The notes beneath the pieces were generated by a model that had not been told where the DNA came from, searched no databases, and saw only the letters and a program-made list of their open reading frames with translations. Shown one piece after another: positions 16,419-53,442 of a stretch of 64,000 bases of DNA (its first letter is position 1; each line of letters begins with the position of its first letter). The position numbers and the translations under genes were made by a program. This DNA is from Planctomycetota bacterium (lineage in GTDB: Bacteria; Planctomycetota; GCA-002687715; DRQF01), in assembly GCA_036479435.1 (NCBI GenBank), contig JAZGFI010000235.1, positions 22,426 to 86,425 of the forward strand, given 5' to 3'.

Positions 16419-17153
16419 TCAGAATCGCCGGCGCGGTGCGTGCGAGTATCGGCATTGTCCGCAACGGAGACTGTCGATGCCGTAGACCACCGCGCTGCGC
16501 GTGGAACGCTGAATAACGAAGGCGTCACCGTTGCTGAGGTCGATGATTTCGGGGCTGTTGTCGGCGGTGAGTTGCGCCGGGCCCCGAACAATTTCTACCT
16601 GCACGACGTCATCGGGCTTCAGCACCAGGTGGTGTAGGAACTCGGTGCAGTTGTTGAAGGCGAGACCCATCCCGGTTCTGATGACGGTGTTGGTGATACT
16701 GCGGAAGTAGGCCGAGCTGCCGAAGGGCGTCGCGGCTACTAAGCCGTCGCCAATGGTCTCGTCGCTCACCATCTTATTGTTCACTGCGACGCGAAAGCGA
16801 ACCGAGCTCCGAACATCTGAGTTGCGAAGGATGATGTCGTTCATTCCACGTAGACGCTTGCCGTCGATGGTGGCGGTGATCTTCATCAATTCTGTTTTGG
16901 CCAGCTCCCCGCTCAAGAAGCGATCCAAGACGAGGGCGTCTTCATGCTCGGGGCATTTGGTGACCGCGCTCGCATCGCGCATGCCGAGTTTGGGAACTTC
17001 CGGAAACTCTCGTTCGGCACCAATCAAAGTGCCGTCACCGCCGTAAGAAATAAGCAAGTCTGCGGCGTCGAAAGAATCGGCGAGTTCGATTCCTCGGGCC
17101 TCCAGCAGAGGCTTCAGGATAGCGGCGTTCTTACCCACCAATCCGAATTTCAT
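16419..17153 (-). CDS. nadK: NAD(+) kinase
   Basis: SYGGDGT, MND, GDGLVAATPFGSSAY. Confidence 0.88.
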   Translation of the reverse strand: MKFGLVGKNAAILKPLLEARGIELADSFDAADLLISYGGDGTLIGAEREFPEVPKLGMRDASAVTKCPEHEDALVLDRFLSGELAKTELMKITATIDGKRLRGMNDIILRNSDVRSSVRFRVAVNNKMVSDETIGDGLVAATPFGSSAYFRSITNTVIRTGMGLAFNNCTEFLHHLVLKPDDVVQVEIVRGPAQLTADNSPEIIDLSNGDAFVIQRSTRSAVVYGIDSLRCGQCRYSHAPRRRF

Positions 17154-17245
17154 CGCACACCCCCAATCCGAACGACTTACCAGGGATCATTATCGGCCTC
17201 CACGCTTTGGGCGCAACCCGCCCCGCGACCTCCCGACGGTGAATT

Positions 17246-18373
17246 TCAGCGCAACTTGAGGGTGGCGAAACTTAGGACGCAACAAAGTAGCGAAACGATC
17301 CAAAAGCGCAGCACGACTTTTGTTTCCGCGAGGCCCTGGTGCTGGTAGCCGTGGTGGGCGGGAGCTCGAAAAAAAATGCGCCGGCCAATCCAGCGGATGC
17401 CGACGTAGTCTTGGATCAACACCGAAAAAGCTTCGAAGACGAAAACCCCGCCCGCGATAAGGAAGAGGAGCTCCTGCTTCGACAAGATTGCCATCGCCCC
17501 CAAGCTACCTCCAAGCGCCATTGCACCGGTGTCGCCCATGAACATCTGAGCCGGATATCCATTGAACCACAAAAAGCCAAAACAGGACCCGACGACTGCC
17601 GAGGCGAAGATCGCAATCGCTTGCATGTCATGGGCCGGCATGTAGTCAAAAGCGAAGAACTTAGAGGTTTGGTTGTTCCACATCATGTACGCGACGACGC
17701 CAAAGACCGCAGCGGTGAGGGCTGTCGGTAAGACCGCCAGCCCGTCTAAGCCGTCGGCGAAATTGATCGCGTTGGTGATCGACACCAGGGCGACAACCAC
17801 GAATGGCAAGTAGAAGTAGCCGAGGTCGATGGGCCCCAGAATCTCGGGTCTCGGAAAGGGGAAGTAGAGATTGGTGCGAATCTCCGCGGGGAAGGGCGAG
17901 GTGCCGTCAGACAAGATGATCGCGCCAAAGAAAAAGGCGAACAGGGCCTGGAGAAAAAACTTTAGATTACGAGACATCCCGGCGTCACTCGACCCACCCA
18001 CAACTTTCATCATGTCGTCGACGCAACCAAGCGCTCCGTACCAAAGCACCGTTAAGACCAAGAGGTGTGCCACTCGGTTCTCAGCTTCGGAGAACAACAA
18101 GGTCGCCAAGATGATGCCACCCACGATCAGCAGGCCCCCCATCGTAGGCGTGCCACTTTTCGAGTGGTTGAAGTACTCGCCGTAGTCGCGAACCCGATCG
18201 CGCATGCCGCGACGGTAGAGCCAGGCCGCTGTCCTGCGTCCAAGGAGAAGCACAAATCCAAACGCGACGATGAAAGCACCCACGCAACGGACCGAGGCGT
18301 ACTGAAGAATGCGAAGCGGCGTTTCGCCCAGATTCAGCGGAGCGGACAACAAGTCATAGAGCCACGGCAACAT
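17246..18373 (-). CDS. mraY: Phospho-N-acetylmuramoyl-pentapeptide transferase
   Basis: KSGTPTMGG, DD motif, NAINFADGLDGL, FMGDTG, APAHH; about 10 TMs. Confidence 0.96.
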   Translation of the reverse strand: MLPWLYDLLSAPLNLGETPLRILQYASVRCVGAFIVAFGFVLLLGRRTAAWLYRRGMRDRVRDYGEYFNHSKSGTPTMGGLLIVGGIILATLLFSEAENRVAHLLVLTVLWYGALGCVDDMMKVVGGSSDAGMSRNLKFFLQALFAFFFGAIILSDGTSPFPAEIRTNLYFPFPRPEILGPIDLGYFYLPFVVVALVSITNAINFADGLDGLAVLPTALTAAVFGVVAYMMWNNQTSKFFAFDYMPAHDMQAIAIFASAVVGSCFGFLWFNGYPAQMFMGDTGAMALGGSLGAMAILSKQELLFLIAGGVFVFEAFSVLIQDYVGIRWIGRRIFFRAPAHHGYQHQGLAETKVVLRFWIVSLLCCVLSFATLKLR

Positions 18374-18376
18374 CGA

Positions 18377-21300
18377 TCAGCTCTCCTGAGGGGCCGGCCC
18401 GGTCGCCGCTAGAGGACCCGAATCTTCGGACCCTGCATCTTGCAGACCATTTCGGGCGGTGAAAATCGCCTCCTTGAGCGCGAAAGTCGGATTGAAAGAG
18501 TCGCAGGTAATCAAGACATCATCAAGTTTGGACAACAAGAGTTGCCAGTCCTCGACGACCCCACGTTTCCACAGCTCGTGGTAGACCTTGACGACCGCGC
18601 TACGCACCTGCCAATTGCGGTGATAGTGGAGCTTTTCGAGGTCCAACAGAATCGATTCGTCCAAAGCCGTGGCGCCGTAGGCCAACACCGCGGCGACGGC
18701 GACCTCAAAGTTGCGTTCGCGGACGCGAACGCGAAGGCGGGCGTTGGCGCGTTCGCGAGCCGGTGGGGTTAGCACCGTGGCGTAGGTGCGTAGAGCATGA
18801 GCGGCCGTGCTTCGAACTTCGTAATAGGGATCGTCCAATGCCGTCAGGAGAGCGTCTTCAACGTCCGGGTCGATGGCCTCAAGTGTTCTCAGGGCAACGA
18901 CCGCATTGCGACGCACAAAGCCGGGCTGTTCGAAGTCCGCGCCCCAAATACGCGGCCACAATGGTGCCGGGCGTCGGTTCTTGACGATGTCGCAGAGTTC
19001 GTAGCGCAAGGCCTGTATTTTCAACATGCCTGCGAGTTTCACACCGACATTGCGAACACGCCAATCGCTGTTGCCGAGGAAACTCTTGACTCGGCGAGTG
19101 AGGTTGGCGCCCTTCACGGCGGCGGGCCGGTGTAGGGCTACCGAGAGCAAGTGAAAGGGCTTAAGGCAGTAGACGTTAAGCGGCATGGAACGGGCAGGCG
19201 CTCCTCGCCGCTGCCGCGGCAAAAACCTGCTGACGCGCGCCAAGACTTCATCCACCTCGGGAGACTTGGCGACGAAGGCGACACCCAAAAAGACGAGGGC
19301 ACCTAATCCCGCCGGAATGCTGAACACGACCAAGCGTGACAGAACGGTCGGCAGCAAGTCGAAATCCCGAGTGACTTCATAGGTGAACCACGCCACCGGG
19401 GCGGCAGCTAGGGTTCCCAGCATCGTCGCTTGCAAGGAGGGCAAAAGGTCTTTGGCTTGAAAGCCTCCGCCGTCGCGAGTGAGATTGCGATTGAGATGCC
19501 AAATGCGGAACAGGCCGTTCGCCAAGAATGAAATCGAAGTTCCCAGCGCAACGCCAACGAAGGACAGGTTTAATCCGAACGCAAAGTAGAGTGACAACAC
19601 GATGTTGAGGGCGACGGCGCCGAGGTTGATCAACATCGCTTGGCCGACCTCAAGCCTCGCGGCGTAGAAGCGACCGGTAAGGCCCTGCAAACCCCACCCG
19701 ATCAAACCAATCGAGTAGGCGCAGAGAGCCGCCGCGACTTTCTGCGTGTCGGAGACATCAAAGTTGCCGTACTCCAACACCAACTCGACTGTGGGAACCG
19801 ACAACACCACCATCAATGCCGAGATCGGAATCAGCAAGAACACGTTCCAGTTGATCCCGCTAGTGACCAGGCGGCGGCAGTAATCCAGATCACGCGCGGC
19901 CTGCGACTCAGAAAACTCTTTGAGGGCGACCGTATTGATCGACTGCGACACCAAAGCAAAGGGAAGTTGAAACAAGACCAAAGCGAAGAAGAGGGTCGAA
20001 GGGTCTCCGACGGCGAGCGTTGAGACGATCATGATGTCGACGACGGAGCCGACTTTCGAAATCGTGACGTCGCCAAGGATCTTCGGCGCCGCGCCGCGCA
20101 CCTTTTTGGCGCCCGTCTCTCCCCATGCGAACAGAGGGCGGAAGTCGACCTTGAAGCCCCGTCGAAACTCTTTGCCCAAGATCACGGGCAAATGGAGGGC
20201 GGCTTGCCCCAAGCCCCCGAGCAACACCCCAACTCCCAATCCCATGATTCCCAGCCGGGGATAGAGAAGGATGCCGACGATGACGCCGATGCTGTACATC
20301 AGCGACGCGTAAGCGGGAAGGCCGAAGCGATTGTGAGCCCGGCAGACCGCACTGAAAATCGCCGCCACCGTAACCAGGACGAGGTAGGGCAACATGAGCC
20401 GAGTCAGGGTGATGGCGTCGCCAATCAAACCCTTGGCGACAAAGCCAGGCAAGACCCAAGGCAGCCACCAGTGTACCGTCAGCATCGCCAGGGCCGCCAC
20501 GACGGCAGAGGCGCCGACTACCGTGGTGAAGACGGTTCGCAGCAAGCGCTGTGCTTCTTCGGGACGGCCATTGCGCCGCAACATCATGAAGCTCGGCAAG
20601 AACGCGCTGTCGATGGCGTTCTCGGCGAAGATGCGTCGAAAGAGGTTCGAGATTGTCAGGCTGGCGGCAAAGATATCCATGACGCCGGTGGTGGCGAAAG
20701 TGAGACCCAGCACCAGGGTTCGAACCAAGCCAAAACAACGCGAAAGAAGGGTCCCTAGCCCGGTTGCGATAACTCGCGAAAGAACGCTTCCGCGTTGATG
20801 GGGAATTTCGAGAGTTCGAATCTTGGCATCGAAAGTCAGCCGATTGGGACCAATGCTCAAGACTTGACCGGGCGACAGTTTGGTTTTGCTCTCAACTTTG
20901 ATGCCGTCTACCGAGATCTGTCCACGCCGCGGAATCAGAAGATACTCGGTGTTCTCGCGACCCACTCCGACGCGGCGAATCAAGGCACGTTCGCGCTGGC
21001 CGCGGTCCTTCAAGACGATGTCGGAGCCACTTCCGTGTCCGAGGGTGCTGACGTTGAAGAGCAACTCGGTTTCGATCCCAGTCGCATCGCGAATCAAGCC
21101 CACTAACTGCTGCTGACTCTTGCTAGTGGGCGCGGGGGGAGGAGACGCCAAGGCGAGAACGGCATCGGTGTTGGCGGCTAGGGCATTGGGCACGACGAGT
21201 TCCCGAAGCGCTTCCGACATCGATTCTCGACGCGCCGAGTCTTCGAGAAGCTCGCGGACTCGGCGCGCTAGTTGATCGCCGTGAACTCGCGTGATCGCTG

Positions 21301-22309
21301 CCCGCCCTTCGTCGTAGCTTTCTTCGAGCATGACGTCGGCGCGACCTTGGTCTTTCAGCGTGATGGCGTTTGCAAGCTGATGGGCATCGGCCCCATCGCT
21401 CTTGGGGATGAGAAGGATGGGCTTGCCTAGCGTCGCAAGCTCCATGATCGCTCCCGCACCGGCGCGCGTCACGATGAGGTCACTCGCCCCGTAGGCGGCT
21501 TCGATCTCGTCAAAAAATCGTCTCGGAAGATAGCGTTCCCGGCGCTGCGGACTCAGCGAAGTTTTCTCAAGGCGAAGTCGGGTGTCGTTCCAGGCGTCAT
21601 AGGCGCCGCGTTCGGCCAATCCCGTGCTGTGAATGACGGTGATGTTCTCGTCTTCGAGAAGTCGATTCAGGCCGTCGATCGTGGCCCGGTTGATCGATCG
21701 TGATCCCATCGATCCGCCAACAAAAAAAGCAACACGGTGGTGATTCGGAATCCCGAGTCGCTCGCGGTGCTCTTGGCGGCTAGCGTTGCCAAATCGAGCG
21801 CGAACGGGATAGCCAGCGTGGATCGCCTTGCTTTCGGGAAAAAAGTCGAGCGATTCCCGAAAAGAAACTCCGATCTTGGTCGCGAAACGCGACAGCAATA
21901 GGTTCGCTTTGCCGGGGTGGACGTTTTGTTCGTGCAAATAAATGGGTCGGCGGAGAATCGCCGCCGCCAACACCGTTGGCACGGACACATAGCCGCCGCT
22001 GGCGACGACAACGTCGGGACGAAATCGCCACAGCGTCACGAGCGCACGCAATACTCCTAAGCAAAGGGCGAGGCTAAAACGCGCAAAGGCGTAAAGACGG
22101 CGGGGCGAAACGAAGGGGTGCGCGGACAGGGATAGAAAGGGAATCTCGGCCTTGCCGACCATCTCGTGTTCGGCGCCACGCGCCGTGCCGAGATAGAGAA
22201 TCTCTGCCTCCGGTTCACGTTGCCGTAATTCGCGAATGATCGCGAGATTGGGCGTGACGTGTCCTCCGGTCCCTCCGCCGGTAAAAACAAAACGCTGATT
22301 GCGACTCAA
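18377..22309 (-). CDS. Fusion protein: MurG glycosyltransferase + FHA-like domain + MurJ/MviN lipid II flippase + HEAT repeats
   Basis: aa ~1-385 GGGTGGH, GGYVS, HEQN, GGSMGS, RAGA, HQLANA (MurG); aa ~405-497 FHA-like; aa ~507-1027 SRCFGLVR, FRRIFAE, SAFLP, FQLP, FYA (MurJ); C-terminal DWRVR, DPYYEVR, NWQVR (HEAT). Confidence 0.88.
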   Translation of the reverse strand: MSRNQRFVFTGGGTGGHVTPNLAIIRELRQREPEAEILYLGTARGAEHEMVGKAEIPFLSLSAHPFVSPRRLYAFARFSLALCLGVLRALVTLWRFRPDVVVASGGYVSVPTVLAAAILRRPIYLHEQNVHPGKANLLLSRFATKIGVSFRESLDFFPESKAIHAGYPVRARFGNASRQEHRERLGIPNHHRVAFFVGGSMGSRSINRATIDGLNRLLEDENITVIHSTGLAERGAYDAWNDTRLRLEKTSLSPQRRERYLPRRFFDEIEAAYGASDLIVTRAGAGAIMELATLGKPILLIPKSDGADAHQLANAITLKDQGRADVMLEESYDEGRAAITRVHGDQLARRVRELLEDSARRESMSEALRELVVPNALAANTDAVLALASPPPAPTSKSQQQLVGLIRDATGIETELLFNVSTLGHGSGSDIVLKDRGQRERALIRRVGVGRENTEYLLIPRRGQISVDGIKVESKTKLSPGQVLSIGPNRLTFDAKIRTLEIPHQRGSVLSRVIATGLGTLLSRCFGLVRTLVLGLTFATTGVMDIFAASLTISNLFRRIFAENAIDSAFLPSFMMLRRNGRPEEAQRLLRTVFTTVVGASAVVAALAMLTVHWWLPWVLPGFVAKGLIGDAITLTRLMLPYLVLVTVAAIFSAVCRAHNRFGLPAYASLMYSIGVIVGILLYPRLGIMGLGVGVLLGGLGQAALHLPVILGKEFRRGFKVDFRPLFAWGETGAKKVRGAAPKILGDVTISKVGSVVDIMIVSTLAVGDPSTLFFALVLFQLPFALVSQSINTVALKEFSESQAARDLDYCRRLVTSGINWNVFLLIPISALMVVLSVPTVELVLEYGNFDVSDTQKVAAALCAYSIGLIGWGLQGLTGRFYAARLEVGQAMLINLGAVALNIVLSLYFAFGLNLSFVGVALGTSISFLANGLFRIWHLNRNLTRDGGGFQAKDLLPSLQATMLGTLAAAPVAWFTYEVTRDFDLLPTVLSRLVVFSIPAGLGALVFLGVAFVAKSPEVDEVLARVSRFLPRQRRGAPARSMPLNVYCLKPFHLLSVALHRPAAVKGANLTRRVKSFLGNSDWRVRNVGVKLAGMLKIQALRYELCDIVKNRRPAPLWPRIWGADFEQPGFVRRNAVVALRTLEAIDPDVEDALLTALDDPYYEVRSTAAHALRTYATVLTPPARERANARLRVRVRERNFEVAVAAVLAYGATALDESILLDLEKLHYHRNWQVRSAVVKVYHELWKRGVVEDWQLLLSKLDDVLITCDSFNPTFALKEAIFTARNGLQDAGSEDSGPLAATGPAPQES

Positions 22310-22581
22310 TTTGGACTCCCCATCGCCCGGCGGAATCTCAGTACGGAGACTCCCTGGCTATGCCGACGCGCAGCCCCCAGCCTACTGGTCGCCGCCGACG
22401 GCTCTTGGGCCTGAAGTTCGCGGCATGAGCCCTCAGGAAATGTCATTCCCAGGGTTGGAGAGGTGTTTGTGTTTGTTTGGGTTCGCCCCGTTCCTGGTGG
22501 ATGGCAGGGGGCGAAACTTCGCAACCACCGCCGAGGTCGCGAAGGGCCAGAATAGCCGGGCTGGCGCCGAAAGTGAAGTGG

Positions 22582-23598
22582 CTACTCCGTCACTTTCGGG
22601 ATGACCCCATCTTGGGCATCGAGCTCGGCGTTTAAGCGCCTTCGCTTGGACCAACGCATGATGACCAAAAAGAAAGTGATCACCGCGATAAAGGCCCCGA
22701 ATCCAAACTCCATGAGCTTGCCCGGCGGAAACCCGAACCAACTTCGCTGACCCTCTAGCCATTCGGCCTCTAGGCCCGCGCGATCGACCCCGATCACGGC
22801 TTTTAGCGAGAAGTCGAGATCGAAACCGCGACTGAGCAGCTTCAGTAGATCGGGGATGTTGCGTCTTTTGCTGCCACGCTCTGCGATGAAACGGACGAGG
22901 GACAAGGACTGGACGTAGGCCAGCTGGCTAGCCCCCTCTTCGTCGGGAAAATCCCGTTCGAGTTCGTGAAGCGGAATCAGGGAATTTGCGGCGCGGGCCC
23001 TTTCCAAGACTTCGTTGCTCCCCCAAAACACTTTTTCACTCGTCCATTGTGCGAGCCCTTCGTTGAGCCAAGTCGGAATAATGCAGCGCGGGCGGACCCT
23101 CATGAGGTGTCCCAAAAAACAGTGCACGAGCTCGTGTTGGAAGATGGTTTCGAGAGTCTCGCGGTGATTCGCGGTCCAGGCGCGGCTCTTAAGGATAATG
23201 AGGTCCTGGAATCCGAAGGCCACCGCCGCGATGTGGTCCGGCTTGGGCCGACCTCCTTCGGCGATGATGTTGGCGTTGAAGGCCTCGTGATCCCGAAAAA
23301 GCCGGACCCGAAGGCGTTGCGGGTAAGAAAACCCTAGTCGTTCCTGGGTTTCTCGCAAGATCCGGGGGTAAAACTCGCGAATGCGGCGGGCGGCACCCTC
23401 CAGGCCGTCCGCCGCCTGAATGTCGAGTGCTTGGGGGTCCGAGGGAGCTTGTTTGAGAAAGGAACCCCGCGCTTCGGCCCCTTTTTGGCCTGCAGCTGCG
23501 GCAACTGGCGGGCCTTGCGGCGGCACGCTCGCCGAAATCGGGGACGAAAGCGCCCACAGCATCGCTAAGACCGAGACCGGGACGAAGACGAGTCCCAT
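22582..23598 (-). CDS. Peptidase MA-like zinc metalloprotease, membrane-anchored; start uncertain
   Basis: HELVH (HExxH), PTWLNEGLA, LAYVQS; N- and C-terminal hydrophobic segments. Confidence 0.8.
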   Translation of the reverse strand: MGLVFVPVSVLAMLWALSSPISASVPPQGPPVAAAAGQKGAEARGSFLKQAPSDPQALDIQAADGLEGAARRIREFYPRILRETQERLGFSYPQRLRVRLFRDHEAFNANIIAEGGRPKPDHIAAVAFGFQDLIILKSRAWTANHRETLETIFQHELVHCFLGHLMRVRPRCIIPTWLNEGLAQWTSEKVFWGSNEVLERARAANSLIPLHELERDFPDEEGASQLAYVQSLSLVRFIAERGSKRRNIPDLLKLLSRGFDLDFSLKAVIGVDRAGLEAEWLEGQRSWFGFPPGKLMEFGFGAFIAVITFFLVIMRWSKRRRLNAELDAQDGVIPKVTE

Positions 23599-42804: not shown

Positions 42805-43536
42805 ATGTCTGAAATGCAAAGCGAACAACCAGCATCACAACCGTCCAGCTTTAGTGAACTGCTCGACGCTTTTCATGAGGCGAGAGTCATAGGCGATTTC
42901 GAAGAGGCATGCCGCCATATTGGGTTACTTCGGGCTCGCAATCCAAGCGACCCCTATCTCGTTCAGCAACATGCTTTGGTCACCTACAAAGGCAAATCTC
43001 CGAATCTGTTGGAAGCGCTCCAGGAAGCGCTCAAGATCTTGTCAGAGAAGCTTGATCCTCATGAGAGCAACGATCCCGAGACACTAGGACTCTGGGGAGC
43101 CATCCACAAACGTCTGTGGGAAGAGACCGACGATCGCAAACACTTAGACGAAGCAGAGTGGGCCTACGAGCGTGGGTTTTACCTTCGGCGGGATTACTAC
43201 AACGGCATCAATTTTGCCTTTTTGTTAGACGTTCGGGCGAAGCTGCAACAAGACCCCGATGAAGCGACAGCGGACCGAATCATCGCAAAAAGGGTGCGAA
43301 GGCGTGTCTTGAAGTACGTCGATGACGCCATTACCGCCTTACCGAAAGACCGAAACGGAAAGCAGAATCCGGAAGAAGTCTATTGGCTCAATGCAACGCG
43401 GGCTGAGGCGTTGATGGGGCTTGGCGACGACGTGGAGTTTGACCGCATCAAGAAATCCTTGTTCGACAGCGCTCCCGAGGCGTGGATGGTGGAGTCAACT
43501 GAAAACCAGCTTGATTCGTTGCGCAAGCTACTATGA
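42805..43536 (+). CDS. TPR-S / MAP3K TRAFs-binding (DUF4071-like) domain protein
   Basis: QQHALVTYK, DPETLGLWGAIHKRLW, YERGF...YYNGINFA, YWLNATRAEA; GGAGA RBS. Confidence 0.8.
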   Translation: MSEMQSEQPASQPSSFSELLDAFHEARVIGDFEEACRHIGLLRARNPSDPYLVQQHALVTYKGKSPNLLEALQEALKILSEKLDPHESNDPETLGLWGAIHKRLWEETDDRKHLDEAEWAYERGFYLRRDYYNGINFAFLLDVRAKLQQDPDEATADRIIAKRVRRRVLKYVDDAITALPKDRNGKQNPEEVYWLNATRAEALMGLGDDVEFDRIKKSLFDSAPEAWMVESTENQLDSLRKLL

Positions 43537-43644
43537 GCCGGCATTCGACGACCATGAAACACGGGCCAGGGTTTGTCGGCAACCACCCGTCCAGCATGAG
43601 CACAACAGCTTGCTTGTGTCAGATCGTCATGGGATTTGATTCAG

Positions 43645-45381
43645 ATGAATGATCATGGTGGACATGTCTTCATCAGCTACTGCACGAAAAATAAGGGGGC
43701 AGCAACATCGCTGGCGAAGGCCCTCGAGGGCAGCCTGCCTTGCTGGTTCGCGGAACGAGACATCCCGGCTACGTCTGACTGGCAATCCGAAATCGTGAAG
43801 GCTATCGAGGTGTGCTCGGTGCTCGTATTGGTCTTGACAGCAGAGGCGAACCGATCCAGAGACGTCAGAAAAGAGGTCTTGCTCGCCGACCAACTTCATA
43901 AGCCAATCCTGCGTATCAACATTGGAAAATTCAAACTATCGCGTTCGTTGACGTATCAGCTTTCAGGAATTCAGTATCTAAGTTGGAGTCACTTCAAACA
44001 CGTCGACTTCAATAAAATCAAACGTGTAGTTGAGCAGCGCCAGTCACAAAGACCGATCGCTGAGGCTGAAGGCCCCACCGCTGAGATTGCCCAAGATCAA
44101 CCCGAGCAACAAGAGCTCTGGTTCGAAGAATCGATAGGAGTTTCGTCGGCGCATCGCCCCAATCTTCGTCCTAGGCATCGGCCTCAATCAACGAGTCGCC
44201 CCGCGGGGATTGTTTCCGAAAGACAACGAGGCAACGCAACGCGGGTGTCGGTCGTTTTTCAGCAGTTTCGAGACGTACCCGGTGATTTGCGGATCTTTGC
44301 GGCGCGGTTTTTGAAGCGAGTCGACCCGGATACATGGCAGGGTCGCAAGGATTTTGCCCTGGTCGAAAAGAAGTTCTTGTCGACTGTCGATAACGTGGCC
44401 GATGTGTTGAGGCGATTGTTGAAAGCGGAATTGCAGATCGCGACCAAACTTCGGCTGGACATCATGACTGACATCGAAGATGCTTTTCGCGCCACAAACG
44501 CTTCTCTACTTGCGATCCGTCCCGATTCTCGGGACGAGAAAGCCGACCGGCTGCTGGAGCAAAACATCTTTGATTTCGAAAAGCTGGCGCGGCGCTATCG
44601 AGCTCAGATTCGACGCATTTACCGGCTTCGCAACTACGCACTTACGAGCGCGTTGACTTTCGGATTTGCGGCCACCTTAGGCGGGCTCGCTTGGTCCGTT
44701 GCGGCCAACTGGGCATGGTCGTCTTCCGTTCTTGACATCAGTTTTTGGCCAAGGCTTGAGGACCGGGAGAAGTACACTCGCTTTGGGTTTTCAAGTAGTT
44801 GGAAAATTGTCGCTGCACTCGTTCTGGTGGCGTTTTCAATCGGCATGGCGCGTCCACAGAGATGGATTCGTCGTGTCTTGTTCGTTGTCATCGGAGCTAT
44901 CGGAGCGACCTTGATCTTGCGATGGAACACTCTTGGGCCCTTCTACTTCCACATGAAGGATCCGACTGCGGTCTGGGATAGCCTAACTTCGGCCTATGGC
45001 AACATGACTAGTGCCTTCACAGATTCTGACAAACAGAATCAGATTATCCGCGCTTTTGCCTCCGTCGGAGTTGTTGCTGGGATCTTGTTTTTGATCAAAG
45101 ACATCCGGAGCGCGCACCGTCCAGCTTGGTGGAAATTAGGCGTCTACTGGATTGGGGCCCTTGGGGCGATTTTCGTGACACACTTCGTCCTAGAGCAACT
45201 ATTCGCGACGACGTCCAAGGGCCAAGGCCGTAACGGTTTAGCCAGCTTGAGAACCCCGATCATCTTGACGCGGGCCGCACTGACCTCGTGTCTTGTAATT
45301 GCCGTGTCGCTTGTCTTGAAGGCGCCATGGATCTCGTGGGGGTTGGACAAGCAAAGGCGCGCATTCAAGGCCCAATGTTGA
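43645..45381 (+). CDS. TIR-domain protein with C-terminal multi-TM region
   Basis: HVFISY, CWFAERDI, EIVKAI, SRDVRKEV; about 6 TMs at the C-terminus. Confidence 0.85.
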   Translation: MNDHGGHVFISYCTKNKGAATSLAKALEGSLPCWFAERDIPATSDWQSEIVKAIEVCSVLVLVLTAEANRSRDVRKEVLLADQLHKPILRINIGKFKLSRSLTYQLSGIQYLSWSHFKHVDFNKIKRVVEQRQSQRPIAEAEGPTAEIAQDQPEQQELWFEESIGVSSAHRPNLRPRHRPQSTSRPAGIVSERQRGNATRVSVVFQQFRDVPGDLRIFAARFLKRVDPDTWQGRKDFALVEKKFLSTVDNVADVLRRLLKAELQIATKLRLDIMTDIEDAFRATNASLLAIRPDSRDEKADRLLEQNIFDFEKLARRYRAQIRRIYRLRNYALTSALTFGFAATLGGLAWSVAANWAWSSSVLDISFWPRLEDREKYTRFGFSSSWKIVAALVLVAFSIGMARPQRWIRRVLFVVIGAIGATLILRWNTLGPFYFHMKDPTAVWDSLTSAYGNMTSAFTDSDKQNQIIRAFASVGVVAGILFLIKDIRSAHRPAWWKLGVYWIGALGAIFVTHFVLEQLFATTSKGQGRNGLASLRTPIILTRAALTSCLVIAVSLVLKAPWISWGLDKQRRAFKAQC

Positions 45382-52035: not shown

Positions 52036-53442
52036 GTGGCGACGGTTTTTGTTTCTTATCGGACAGCTGATTCCACGGAAACTGTAGAGCGCTTGTGCGA
52101 CCGACTTCGTGCCGCACTTGGAAAAGATCAGGTCTTTCGAGATCGAAATGCGATTGAGATTGGTAACGACTATCGAGTTGCGATCGACGATGCCTTGGAA
52201 TCCTGCGACGTGTTACTTGCGGTCATCGGCGAGGACTGGATGGGACCAAAGCCCGACGGCAGGTCGAGAATGTCCGACGAAGACGACTACGTTCGTTTTG
52301 AAATCGAAAAGGCGCTTGCAGGTAACGCAGTTGTCATTCCCGTGCTGTTGGGCTTAACGCCCATGCCCAAGGCCATTGACATCCCACCATCTCTCGAACA
52401 ACTGACCTACCGTCAGGCCACGAACTTGCGATCAGACCCTGACTTTGATTTTGACGTGGCCCGTATCTTGAGGCGAATTCCGGGCGCAAGTCCGAAGAGC
52501 TTCAAGACCAATGTTCTCCTCGTAGCAATGTTGTTGCTCGTTATTCCGAGCTGGATATTGCTCTATGCTGGGCCTTGGGGGCTTGCGACAGCAGCCTTGG
52601 CTCTCGTTCCGTTCCCGCTCCTTTTTGGGTTGATGTTCGTGTTTCGAAAACGACGAGCCGAAGCGATCCGACTTTGGATTGATCGAAAGATCTTGATTGG
52701 GAAGTGGACCACGCATGTGCTGTCCTGTTGCCTTTTTCTTGCACTTCTAACGACTGCTTTTCTGGGCACAATCAGCATCAAGAGGGATGAGAATGACACC
52801 ACACATCTCAAAGTCGAGCATGATGATGACGGTGAACGTCACGCTCTTGATGTCGGCACCAACTACCATGTGTTTTGGACGACATTGTGGTCGCCGCGCG
52901 ACGTCACGGTTCGCGTCGATGGGTTGCCGAGGAAAGTCGTTCGGCTGCGGCCTTACCAACGACTGACTCTAGAGATCCCCCATGCGTTCATCAAAAGAGT
53001 GCTGCTGGTTCGAAGCGGGACTTTGTTCCTGGCCGATACGGCGTTTCACAACGATGAGCATTCGTTTGTGATGCAAGTGTACAAAAACAACATCTTGTCG
53101 GCTGAGGCAGAATTCGATGGCCAGTCTGTCTACATCGGGTGTGAAAAAGCGACTGGGGTTCCGGAAGCGCTGAGAACAACTTGGCGGCAAGAACTCGTCG
53201 ACGGCAACTATACCGCCAAAGAGAAGACGAACTTGATGCCGAAGTATTGGACGAAGGTCGGCAATGACCTTGAGTCCTTCGAGCTTGAGCCCAAAGATAA
53301 GATCCGAATTGATCTCATTAAGATGTCGGACTCGAGTGCCGGCGGGACGTTGTTTGGGAGAAGCAAGATGATTGAGGTTAATTCATCGAGGGACTCAAGG
53401 TTTAGTCCCCAAGTCATCACCATCGAAGTCCAAGAGGACTGA
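52036..53442 (+). CDS. TIR-3TM-extracytoplasmic domain protein
   Basis: VFVSYR, VFRD, VLLAVIG..W, DYVRFEI, VIPVL; three TMs; about 220-aa soluble C-terminus. Confidence 0.87.
   Translation: MATVFVSYRTADSTETVERLCDRLRAALGKDQVFRDRNAIEIGNDYRVAIDDALESCDVLLAVIGEDWMGPKPDGRSRMSDEDDYVRFEIEKALAGNAVVIPVLLGLTPMPKAIDIPPSLEQLTYRQATNLRSDPDFDFDVARILRRIPGASPKSFKTNVLLVAMLLLVIPSWILLYAGPWGLATAALALVPFPLLFGLMFVFRKRRAEAIRLWIDRKILIGKWTTHVLSCCLFLALLTTAFLGTISIKRDENDTTHLKVEHDDDGERHALDVGTNYHVFWTTLWSPRDVTVRVDGLPRKVVRLRPYQRLTLEIPHAFIKRVLLVRSGTLFLADTAFHNDEHSFVMQVYKNNILSAEAEFDGQSVYIGCEKATGVPEALRTTWRQELVDGNYTAKEKTNLMPKYWTKVGNDLESFELEPKDKIRIDLIKMSDSSAGGTLFGRSKMIEVNSSRDSRFSPQVITIEVQED

Follow-up and report, generated by a model that had tools for sequence, protein, structure and literature searches.

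A MurG-FHA-MurJ-HEAT fusion gene next to mraY in a planctomycete genome: a probable housekeeping locus for the membrane stage of peptidoglycan precursor synthesis

The window analysed here is a stretch of 64,000 nucleotides of contig JAZGFI010000235.1, from the genome of a Planctomycetota bacterium (GenBank assembly GCA_036479435.1). On its reverse strand, a single open reading frame (ORF) joins MurG, an FHA-fold domain, the flippase MurJ and a HEAT-type tail, and is followed directly by mraY. MurG acts on the cytoplasmic face of the membrane and finishes lipid II. There is a long-standing debate over whether MraY, MurG and the flippase are physically united in a single complex, and over the identity of the protein that flips lipid II. 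We think it likely that two translationally coupled genes at this locus carry out, as housekeeping functions, the membrane steps in the synthesis of peptidoglycan precursors, and we propose the HEAT tail as a docking adaptor for MraY. A functional link of the MraY, MurG and MurJ steps, suggested in an earlier note made from the sequence alone, is strongly backed by comparative genomics: both genes are sole copies, the fusion is conserved, a second fusion has the opposite order, and HEAT and mraY are adjacent across phyla.

Results

MurG, MurJ and MraY are each encoded once in the genome

At 92% completeness, the genome is a metagenome-assembled genome (MAG) of 5.47 Mb in 299 contigs. No MurG or MurJ orthologue other than the fused gene was found in it, and mraY is also single. 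The runner-up match for MurJ is a Wzx-like Polysacc_synt protein and that for MurG is a glycosyltransferase resembling monogalactosyldiacylglycerol (MGDG) synthases. Neither a stand-alone murG or murJ nor Amj was found in this 92%-complete MAG, which also encodes one Wzx-like MOP protein (contig C147) and two SEDS proteins.

A dcw cluster on contig C18 (L145 1181-12903) holds rsmH, a class B penicillin-binding protein (bPBP) gene, murE, murF, ftsW, a gene for a LysM-domain protein, murC and murB. Judged by the canonical dcw gene order, this cluster lacks mraY, murD and murG where they would be expected. The LysM gene occupies the usual place of murG. In the window, no dcw gene was found among the 46 (13 + 33) other large ORFs scanned, in agreement with the earlier note. 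We conclude that mraY and murG moved out of the dcw cluster and joined murJ, and that the fused gene and mraY are probably the organism's housekeeping copies.

The domains of the fused protein

The frame is uninterrupted, and Pfam and NCBIfam models place in it the four domains that had been proposed (Table 1). The junctions between them, previously estimated at ~21150, ~20800 and ~19200, agree with domain borders at 21155, 20804/20785 and 19241/19192. Homologues begin at the same aligned position as the TTG start (M-S-R..RFVFTGGGTGGH).

The MurG part is matched over the cut-off by Pfam GT28_N (PF03033, residues 7-147, E 7e-32, 110.8 bits) and GT28_C (PF04101, residues 194-367, E 7e-22, 78.7 bits), and at E ~1e-29 by the MurG structures of E. 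coli and P. aeruginosa (1f0k, 3s2u). We take the functional motifs of MurG to be GGTGGH, GGY, HEQN, GGS.G, the E of RAGA...E, and HQ..NA. In the fused protein the motif positions are TGGGTGGH (10-17), GG (105-106), HEQN (126-129), G199/S200/G202, R282, GAG (284-286), E290, PK (302-303), HQ (310-311) and NA (314-315). They align with the same motifs of both structures and are invariant in 16/16 fused homologues (27-63% identity); the motif set is thus complete, as first read. Relative to the E. coli and P. aeruginosa enzymes, the domain carries an insertion of ~30 residues at residues ~232-262 (21520-21615, reverse strand).

The MurJ part is covered by Pfam MurJ at residues 538-980 (E 6e-79) and by TIGR01695 (murJ) with 275.7 bits against a cut-off of 235.55, over model positions 2-505 of 506. 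The full MurJ of the earlier reading is therefore upheld. E. coli MurJ structures match this part at E ~1e-33, and residues R524, R530, D545 and R558 are the equivalents of E. coli R18, R24, D39 and R52. One homologue of the fused protein (P0099, 1254 residues) has a degenerate MurJ part in which the R18 equivalent is H, the R52 equivalent is M and the FAENA motif is lost; it sits on a very long branch, and its MurG and HEAT parts look intact.

Between MurG and MurJ, Pfam Yop-YscD_cpl, an FHA-like model, matches residues 410-494 (E 0.012), and the Pfam FHA model is absent from the matches to the fused protein at E <= 0.1. An AlphaFold2 (AF2) model of residues 392-508 is all-beta, with a predicted local distance difference test score (pLDDT) of 89.1. 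The top Foldseek matches listed for it are almost all FHA domains (CEP170, EmbR, GarA, OdhI, FhaA Rv0020c, KIF1A; template modelling scores 0.6-0.69), with a type III secretion protein also among the best, and a profile of the segment matches the FHA structures of Slr1951 (3hx1, E 5e-5) and EmbR (E 1e-3). FHA domains bind phosphothreonine through four residues: the GR Arg, the SxxH Ser and His, and the NG Asn. In the alignment with EmbR, v-g-a, g-r-r-a-r-a and p-R-r-G of the segment stand opposite the EmbR motifs IGR, VSRHHA and SSNG. Residues other than the canonical Arg, Ser, His and Asn occupy these positions, which vary among 14 relatives. Only G404, G411, L416, F418, D430, R461, G463 and L478 are invariant in the 14 sequences of this segment. 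The domain had been described as FHA-like and without GR/SxxH/NG; the fold and the replaced residues both bear this out, and most probably, as the earlier note supposed, the fused protein has an FHA fold that does not read phosphothreonine.

In the tail, HEAT_2 matches residues 1132-1176 with 26.5 bits, just under the cut-off of 27.7, and scores well over it in relatives (e.g., 87.4 bits in the HEAT ORF of L040). The AF2 model of the tail consists of 15 helices (pLDDT 90.3). Foldseek retrieves alphaRep/HEAT repeats, that is, generic binder-type solenoids, and a look-up in the ESM Atlas yields generic HEAT clusters only. Residues W1083, G1130, R1134, Y1162, E1164 and R1236 are invariant and common to both HEAT family alignments.

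The HEAT tail is a module linked to mraY

The HEAT tail by itself was searched against 401 genomes of the phylum, including that of the window, and 46 gave a match. Frames of ~1300 residues or more with the HEAT module occur only in the order of the window's organism; elsewhere in the phylum, the module forms a stand-alone gene of ~230-300 residues or lies within frames of 620-680 residues. A pattern scan, with each species represented by a single genome, yielded 209 candidate stretches, of which 195 were confirmed; architectures and neighbours were counted in the best 80. These 80 loci carry at least seven phylum-level labels (Planctomycetota, Latescibacterota, Gemmatimonadota, Myxococcota, Thermodesulfobacteriota, Acidobacteriota and Glassbacteria), and among the Thermodesulfobacteriota are Syntrophobacteraceae, Desulfobacterales and a cultured species, Desulfacinum infernum DSM 9756 (L090). 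MurG-HEAT accounts for 58 loci and MurG-FHA-MurJ-HEAT for 13 plus one cut copy; the opposite order, MurJ-MurG-HEAT, is found at two, and at six HEAT has an ORF of its own. The HEAT tail is thus a distinct module, which is fused to MurG, to MurJ-MurG or to MurG-FHA-MurJ, or stands alone.

Its neighbour is mraY. The gene lies directly downstream of HEAT on the same strand at 78/80 loci of the pattern scan, 27/30 planctomycete loci and 14/14 acidobacterial loci, sets that overlap partly, the 80-locus and 30-locus sets sharing genomes. Apart from four loci of one genus (see Discussion), one HEAT locus without mraY ends at a contig edge. The pairing also holds where HEAT stands alone and murG sits on a different contig (G027, G034). 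In two planctomycete genomes from another family, a SEDS (FtsW/RodA) gene, a stand-alone HEAT gene and mraY follow each other in this order, nearly abutting (L038 313-3293, L039 1-3518). Within the best 80, murJ is often a close neighbour as well: in eight loci it comes right behind mraY, and in four it lies upstream of murG-HEAT. We conclude that the conserved core of the system is the pair of HEAT and mraY, not the MurG-MurJ fusion.

A profile search with the HEAT tail against 1.84 billion representatives gave 656 matches at E <= 1e-30, a number not usable as family size because it includes giant generic HEAT proteins that match partially many times over. Among the best 150 of the 656, 84 are single full-length matches: seven of at least 1200 residues, 33 of 600-790, nine of 419-507 and 35 of fewer than 400. 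Eight of the nine in the 419-507 class are MurG-HEAT or MurJ-HEAT fragments cut at the 5' end, and the ninth (P0141) is HEAT only.

In the window, the junction reads ...CAGGAGAGC TGA TCG ATG, and the AGGAG upstream of mraY lies within the 3' end of the fused ORF. As stated previously, the fused ORF ends three nucleotides before mraY, with its TGA at 18379-18377 and the ATG from 18373. From the AGGAG and the short spacer, we predict that the two genes are translationally coupled. The tight coupling to mraY noticed in this one sequence is matched by the adjacency of HEAT and mraY across phyla.

MraY of the window scores 270.6 bits with TIGR00445 (mraY; cut-off 192.05) and matches Aquifex MraY (4j72) at E 2e-67; the catalytic Asp residues D119, D120 and D281 are invariant in 23 MraY sequences. 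In a cytoplasmic loop, the HHH of Aquifex MraY is HHG in the window's enzyme. The third His of this motif is replaced in 28/28 HEAT-linked MraYs and kept in 7/10 planctomycete MraYs that have no HEAT neighbour. Moreover, an Arg directly before the A-P of the HHH loop is present in 22/23 of the HEAT-linked MraYs aligned first and in 5/5 of those added later, versus 0/10 of those without HEAT. This signature looks as co-evolution with a cytoplasmic partner would.

The fusion is real, widespread and arose at least twice

In four public runs from three studies, a single contig covers the whole interval 17000-22700, without joints and with 0 differences. This comparison used contigs and not raw reads, and two of the four runs may be the source of the assembly. 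Database records place the identical fused protein on four contigs, of up to 3.99 Mb. The four-domain ORF recurs at 44-63% identity in relatives, namely in 8/8 genomes of the same family (one cut by a contig end) and in 12/14 further genomes of the same order (nine full-length, three cut by contig ends). It is extremely improbable that an assembly error or a frameshift has created the long ORF out of separate genes: a 299-contig MAG compared at the level of contigs would leave some room for it, and against it stand the identical stretch in the contigs of four runs and the recurrence of the same four-domain ORF in independent assemblies at 30-63% identity. The possibility of an artefact, raised in the earlier note, is refuted by these runs and by the fusion in relatives of the same order.

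GT28 and MurJ domains occur together in 97 rows of a protein search, one of which is the protein of the window; the fused architecture thus has 96 further clusters at 90% identity. Their database names are automatic only (MurJ, MurG, or both). The earlier note knew of no described protein of this kind. In the literature this stands: our search (subscription journals lay outside its coverage) retrieved nothing that describes MurG fused to MurJ, or a HEAT protein together with MraY. In sequence databases, however, the architecture is common.

A maximum-likelihood tree was built from 33 MurJ parts; it is unrooted, has several long branches and compositional outliers, and the fused rows in its alignment carried some flanking residues filled by fused rows alone. 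In it, 15 MurG-FHA-MurJ-HEAT rows, from planctomycete and Aminicenantes/Acidobacteriota-type proteins, form one side of a branch (ultrafast bootstrap 100, approximate likelihood-ratio test 99). Two MurJ-MurG-HEAT rows nest among unfused murJ genes that adjoin murG-HEAT; ORFs of this order, with 1225-1229 residues, occur in two Desulfobacterales. In 301 acidobacterial genomes, MurG-FHA-MurJ-HEAT is full-length in nine, a form without FHA is found in two, and MurJ precedes MurG in five. The opposite-order MurJ-MurG-HEAT appears to have arisen separately, and the fusion of MurG and MurJ at least twice.

Discussion

A possible arrangement of the membrane steps

We infer the activities of the domains, the topology, the contact between HEAT and MraY and the hand-over of substrate (channelling). 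The fused gene would encode one inner-membrane protein, with a cytoplasmic MurG, a Pro-rich linker and FHA spacer, MurJ, and a cytoplasmic HEAT solenoid after the last helix. MurG would be held by a linker of ~15 residues from the compact FHA domain, which would end ~10 residues before the first transmembrane helix (TM1) of MurJ. MurJ has 14 helices, and its cavity is entered through a portal between TM1 and TM8, according to the accessible part of one report (PMC9973255). Given this even number of helices, MurG, FHA and HEAT are expected on one face, the cytoplasmic one. MraY would make lipid I beside MurG. From it, the tethered MurG domain would form lipid II, which the MurJ domain further along the chain would take up and flip. 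The HEAT tail, as docking adaptor, would keep MraY beside MurG and MurJ in a complex of fixed stoichiometry. In its furthest form, this proposal makes HEAT a dedicated MraY-docking adaptor and the system an MraY-MurG(-MurJ) assembly line for lipid II in many little-studied phyla; in the MurG-FHA-MurJ-HEAT form, direct hand-over from the tethered MurG into the TM1/TM8 portal of MurJ would explain both the loss of the R270-type Arg (see below) and the remodelled HHH loop. We regard that form as possible and rather doubtful.

Weighing the alternatives

A number of observations count against reading the locus as housekeeping machinery with a MraY adaptor. TIGR01133 (murG) covers residues 5-377 with 221 bits, under its cut-off of 250.25, perhaps because of the insertion of ~30 residues. 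MurG is joined directly to MurJ, without FHA, in two acidobacterial relatives (L159, L160), and the FHA domain therefore cannot be essential to the mechanism. Two genomes of the same order (G014 and G015; 86% and 90% complete; 2.4-2.6 Mb) have zero match to the fused protein, and with this query neither MurG nor MurJ was detected in them, which could be pathway loss or a missing contig. At four loci of one genus in the window's family (L024, L026, L051, L052), a TPR-repeat gene and not mraY follows the fusion. The invariant HEAT residues resemble ordinary structural positions of HEAT repeats and give no pointer to an interface, and the compared relatives of MraY are not independent, such that the signature may only mark a subfamily and not an interface. 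Finally, the equivalent of E. coli R270 is V778 in the fused MurJ. An Arg is found at this position in 10/10 unfused planctomycete MurJs and 2/2 MurJ-MurG-HEAT proteins, and in 1/15 MurG-FHA-MurJ-HEAT proteins. Distant members of this last family have Arg or Lys one position before; close kin of the window protein have no basic residue at either position.

This last point bears on the alternative that the MurJ part no longer flips and merely anchors or scaffolds MurG, with a SEDS protein or the Wzx-like MOP protein of contig C147 flipping lipid II. R18, R24 and R270 are essential cavity arginines of E. coli MurJ in the available portions of two papers (PMC9973255, PMC13661225), and with the R270 equivalent lost in 14/15 family members, a degenerate MurJ part on the long branch of P0099, and one Wzx-like MOP and two SEDS proteins encoded in the genome, such a change of role has some footing. 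It is nonetheless quite improbable, in view of a TIGR01695 score over the cut-off across the whole model, the retained equivalents of R18, R24, D39 and R52, and a genome in which no other MurJ and no Amj was found. The cationic triad can also come from other positions: that of S. aureus MurJ is K22-R176-K302, and in E. coli M171R suppresses R24A, as given in the part of the source at hand (PMC13661225). A relocation of the Arg in the S. aureus manner to the position of E. coli M171 is ruled out, the equivalent residue being V676. The fused family has conserved basic residues of its own (R579, R/K657, K/R797, R885, R935 and R1025), and because of these and of the freedom in the triad, we read the substrate site of the fused MurJ as probably remodelled, not dead.

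Alternatively, the fusion may exist only for equal expression and for anchoring MurG at the membrane; HEAT would then bind a partner other than MraY, such as the Mur ligases, a SEDS/bPBP synthase or a cytoskeletal scaffold, and the adjacency of mraY would reflect co-expression. We consider this unlikely, for mraY is the one constant neighbour of HEAT across architectures, even with murG unlinked, and the cytoplasmic HHH region of MraY changes along with the presence of HEAT. It would fit with the SEDS gene directly before HEAT and mraY in two planctomycete genomes, and with a fold search that yields generic binder-type solenoids only. It would also fit with B. pertussis MurG, described in the accessible text of one study as a scaffold for cytoplasmic Mur enzymes (PMC6420597), and with the fact that some natural Mur chimeras, in the part of a survey open to us, join non-consecutive enzymes, such that fusion is no proof of substrate passage (PMC10214165). 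Between a partner of this kind and MraY, we favour MraY as what the HEAT tail docks.

Comparison with known systems

Separate MraY, MurG and MurJ, as in E. coli (structures 4j72/8g01, 1f0k/3s2u and 6cc4), belong to the same three families as the domains described here, with the same catalytic motifs and consecutive reactions. In contrast to E. coli and the canonical dcw cluster, the window has MurG and MurJ on one chain, mraY and murG outside dcw, no equivalent of R270, and HHG in MraY.

The pairs of MurG-HEAT and mraY, for example those in Syntrophobacteraceae (Desulfacinum infernum DSM 9756 included), Acidobacteriota, Latescibacterota, Gemmatimonadota and Myxococcota, have the same HEAT module, always directly before mraY, at 33-40% identity to the tail of the window protein. 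Unlike the fused protein, they have no MurJ or FHA in the chain; murJ is unlinked, upstream of murG-HEAT, or after mraY. Our literature search, with subscription journals outside its coverage, found no paper on these pairs either.

For the FHA part, the closest analogue is the MurJ-FhaA system of mycobacteria, which works in a different way and for which Gee et al. 2012 is reportedly the reference. Mycobacterial MurJ (MviN) has an intracellular pseudokinase domain and is associated with the FHA protein FhaA, in the portion of the source available (PMC6180346), and it shares with the fused protein a large extra cytoplasmic region on MurJ and an associated FHA domain. There, the same portion of text indicates, FHA is a separate protein that binds the phosphorylated pseudokinase domain C-terminal to MurJ (PMC6180346), whereas in the window protein FHA stands in cis, N-terminal to TM1 and without the phosphothreonine-binding Arg, Ser, His and Asn, and the C-terminal extension is a HEAT solenoid.

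Other enzymes of the peptidoglycan pathway are likewise joined in one polypeptide, and such fusions have been taken as evidence for complexes: a 2023 survey, in its accessible part, names MurE-MurF, MurC-Ddl, MurC-MurB, MurG-MurC, MurD-FtsW and MraY-MurG chimeras (PMC10214165). That part of the survey, which excluded unidentified species, lists no MurG-MurJ pair, and unlike the window protein none of the chimeras in it has a flippase, an FHA-fold spacer or a HEAT adaptor. The fused gene is thus real and conserved; it varies the known theme of cell-wall enzymes fused to one another, brings in a new adaptor module, and has apparently not been published.

MurG-MurJ fusions of at least two origins and opposite order provide Rosetta-stone evidence for a coupling of synthesis and flipping through MurJ, and the pair of HEAT and mraY suggests a previously unnoticed MraY adaptor. 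Desulfacinum infernum DSM 9756, with the MurG-HEAT form, is a cultured carrier amenable to bench study. A single-chain MurG-MurJ with co-expressed MraY would be an attractive sample for cryo-electron microscopy of the whole membrane stage, and the missing R270 is a natural experiment on substrate capture by MurJ.

Features of the locus and other genes in the window

Table 1. Features of the fused gene and mraY, in window positions
Feature	Position	Strand	Remarks
Fused gene MurG-FHA fold-MurJ-HEAT tail (P0001)	18377..22309	-	1310 residues, TTG start, no internal stop
mraY (P0002)	17246..18373	-	375 residues; sole MraY orthologue found in the genome; HHH motif is HHG
Start region: TTG 22309-22307 and GGGAG 22320-22316, 6 nucleotides 5' of TTG	22307..22320	-	
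MurG (GT28) domain, residues 5-385	21155..22297	-	Pfam, NCBIfam, structure-profile match
FHA-fold beta-sandwich, residues ~397-502	20804..21121	-	AF2, Foldseek, profile match
MurJ flippase domain, residues 509-1023	19241..20785	-	TIGR01695, E. coli MurJ structures
HEAT-type alpha-solenoid tail, residues 1040-1310, mraY-linked module	18380..19192	-	AF2, Foldseek
Coupling junction (predicted): AGGAG 18387-18383, TGA 18379-18377, 3-nucleotide spacer, mraY ATG 18373-18371	18371..18387	-	

Elsewhere in the window, on the forward strand, a TPR-S sensor-type protein is followed by a TIR-domain protein of 581 residues (42805-45381), and a second TIR-domain protein of 468 residues is encoded at 52036-53442. 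The TPR-S and TIR genes of both intervals may be defence genes.

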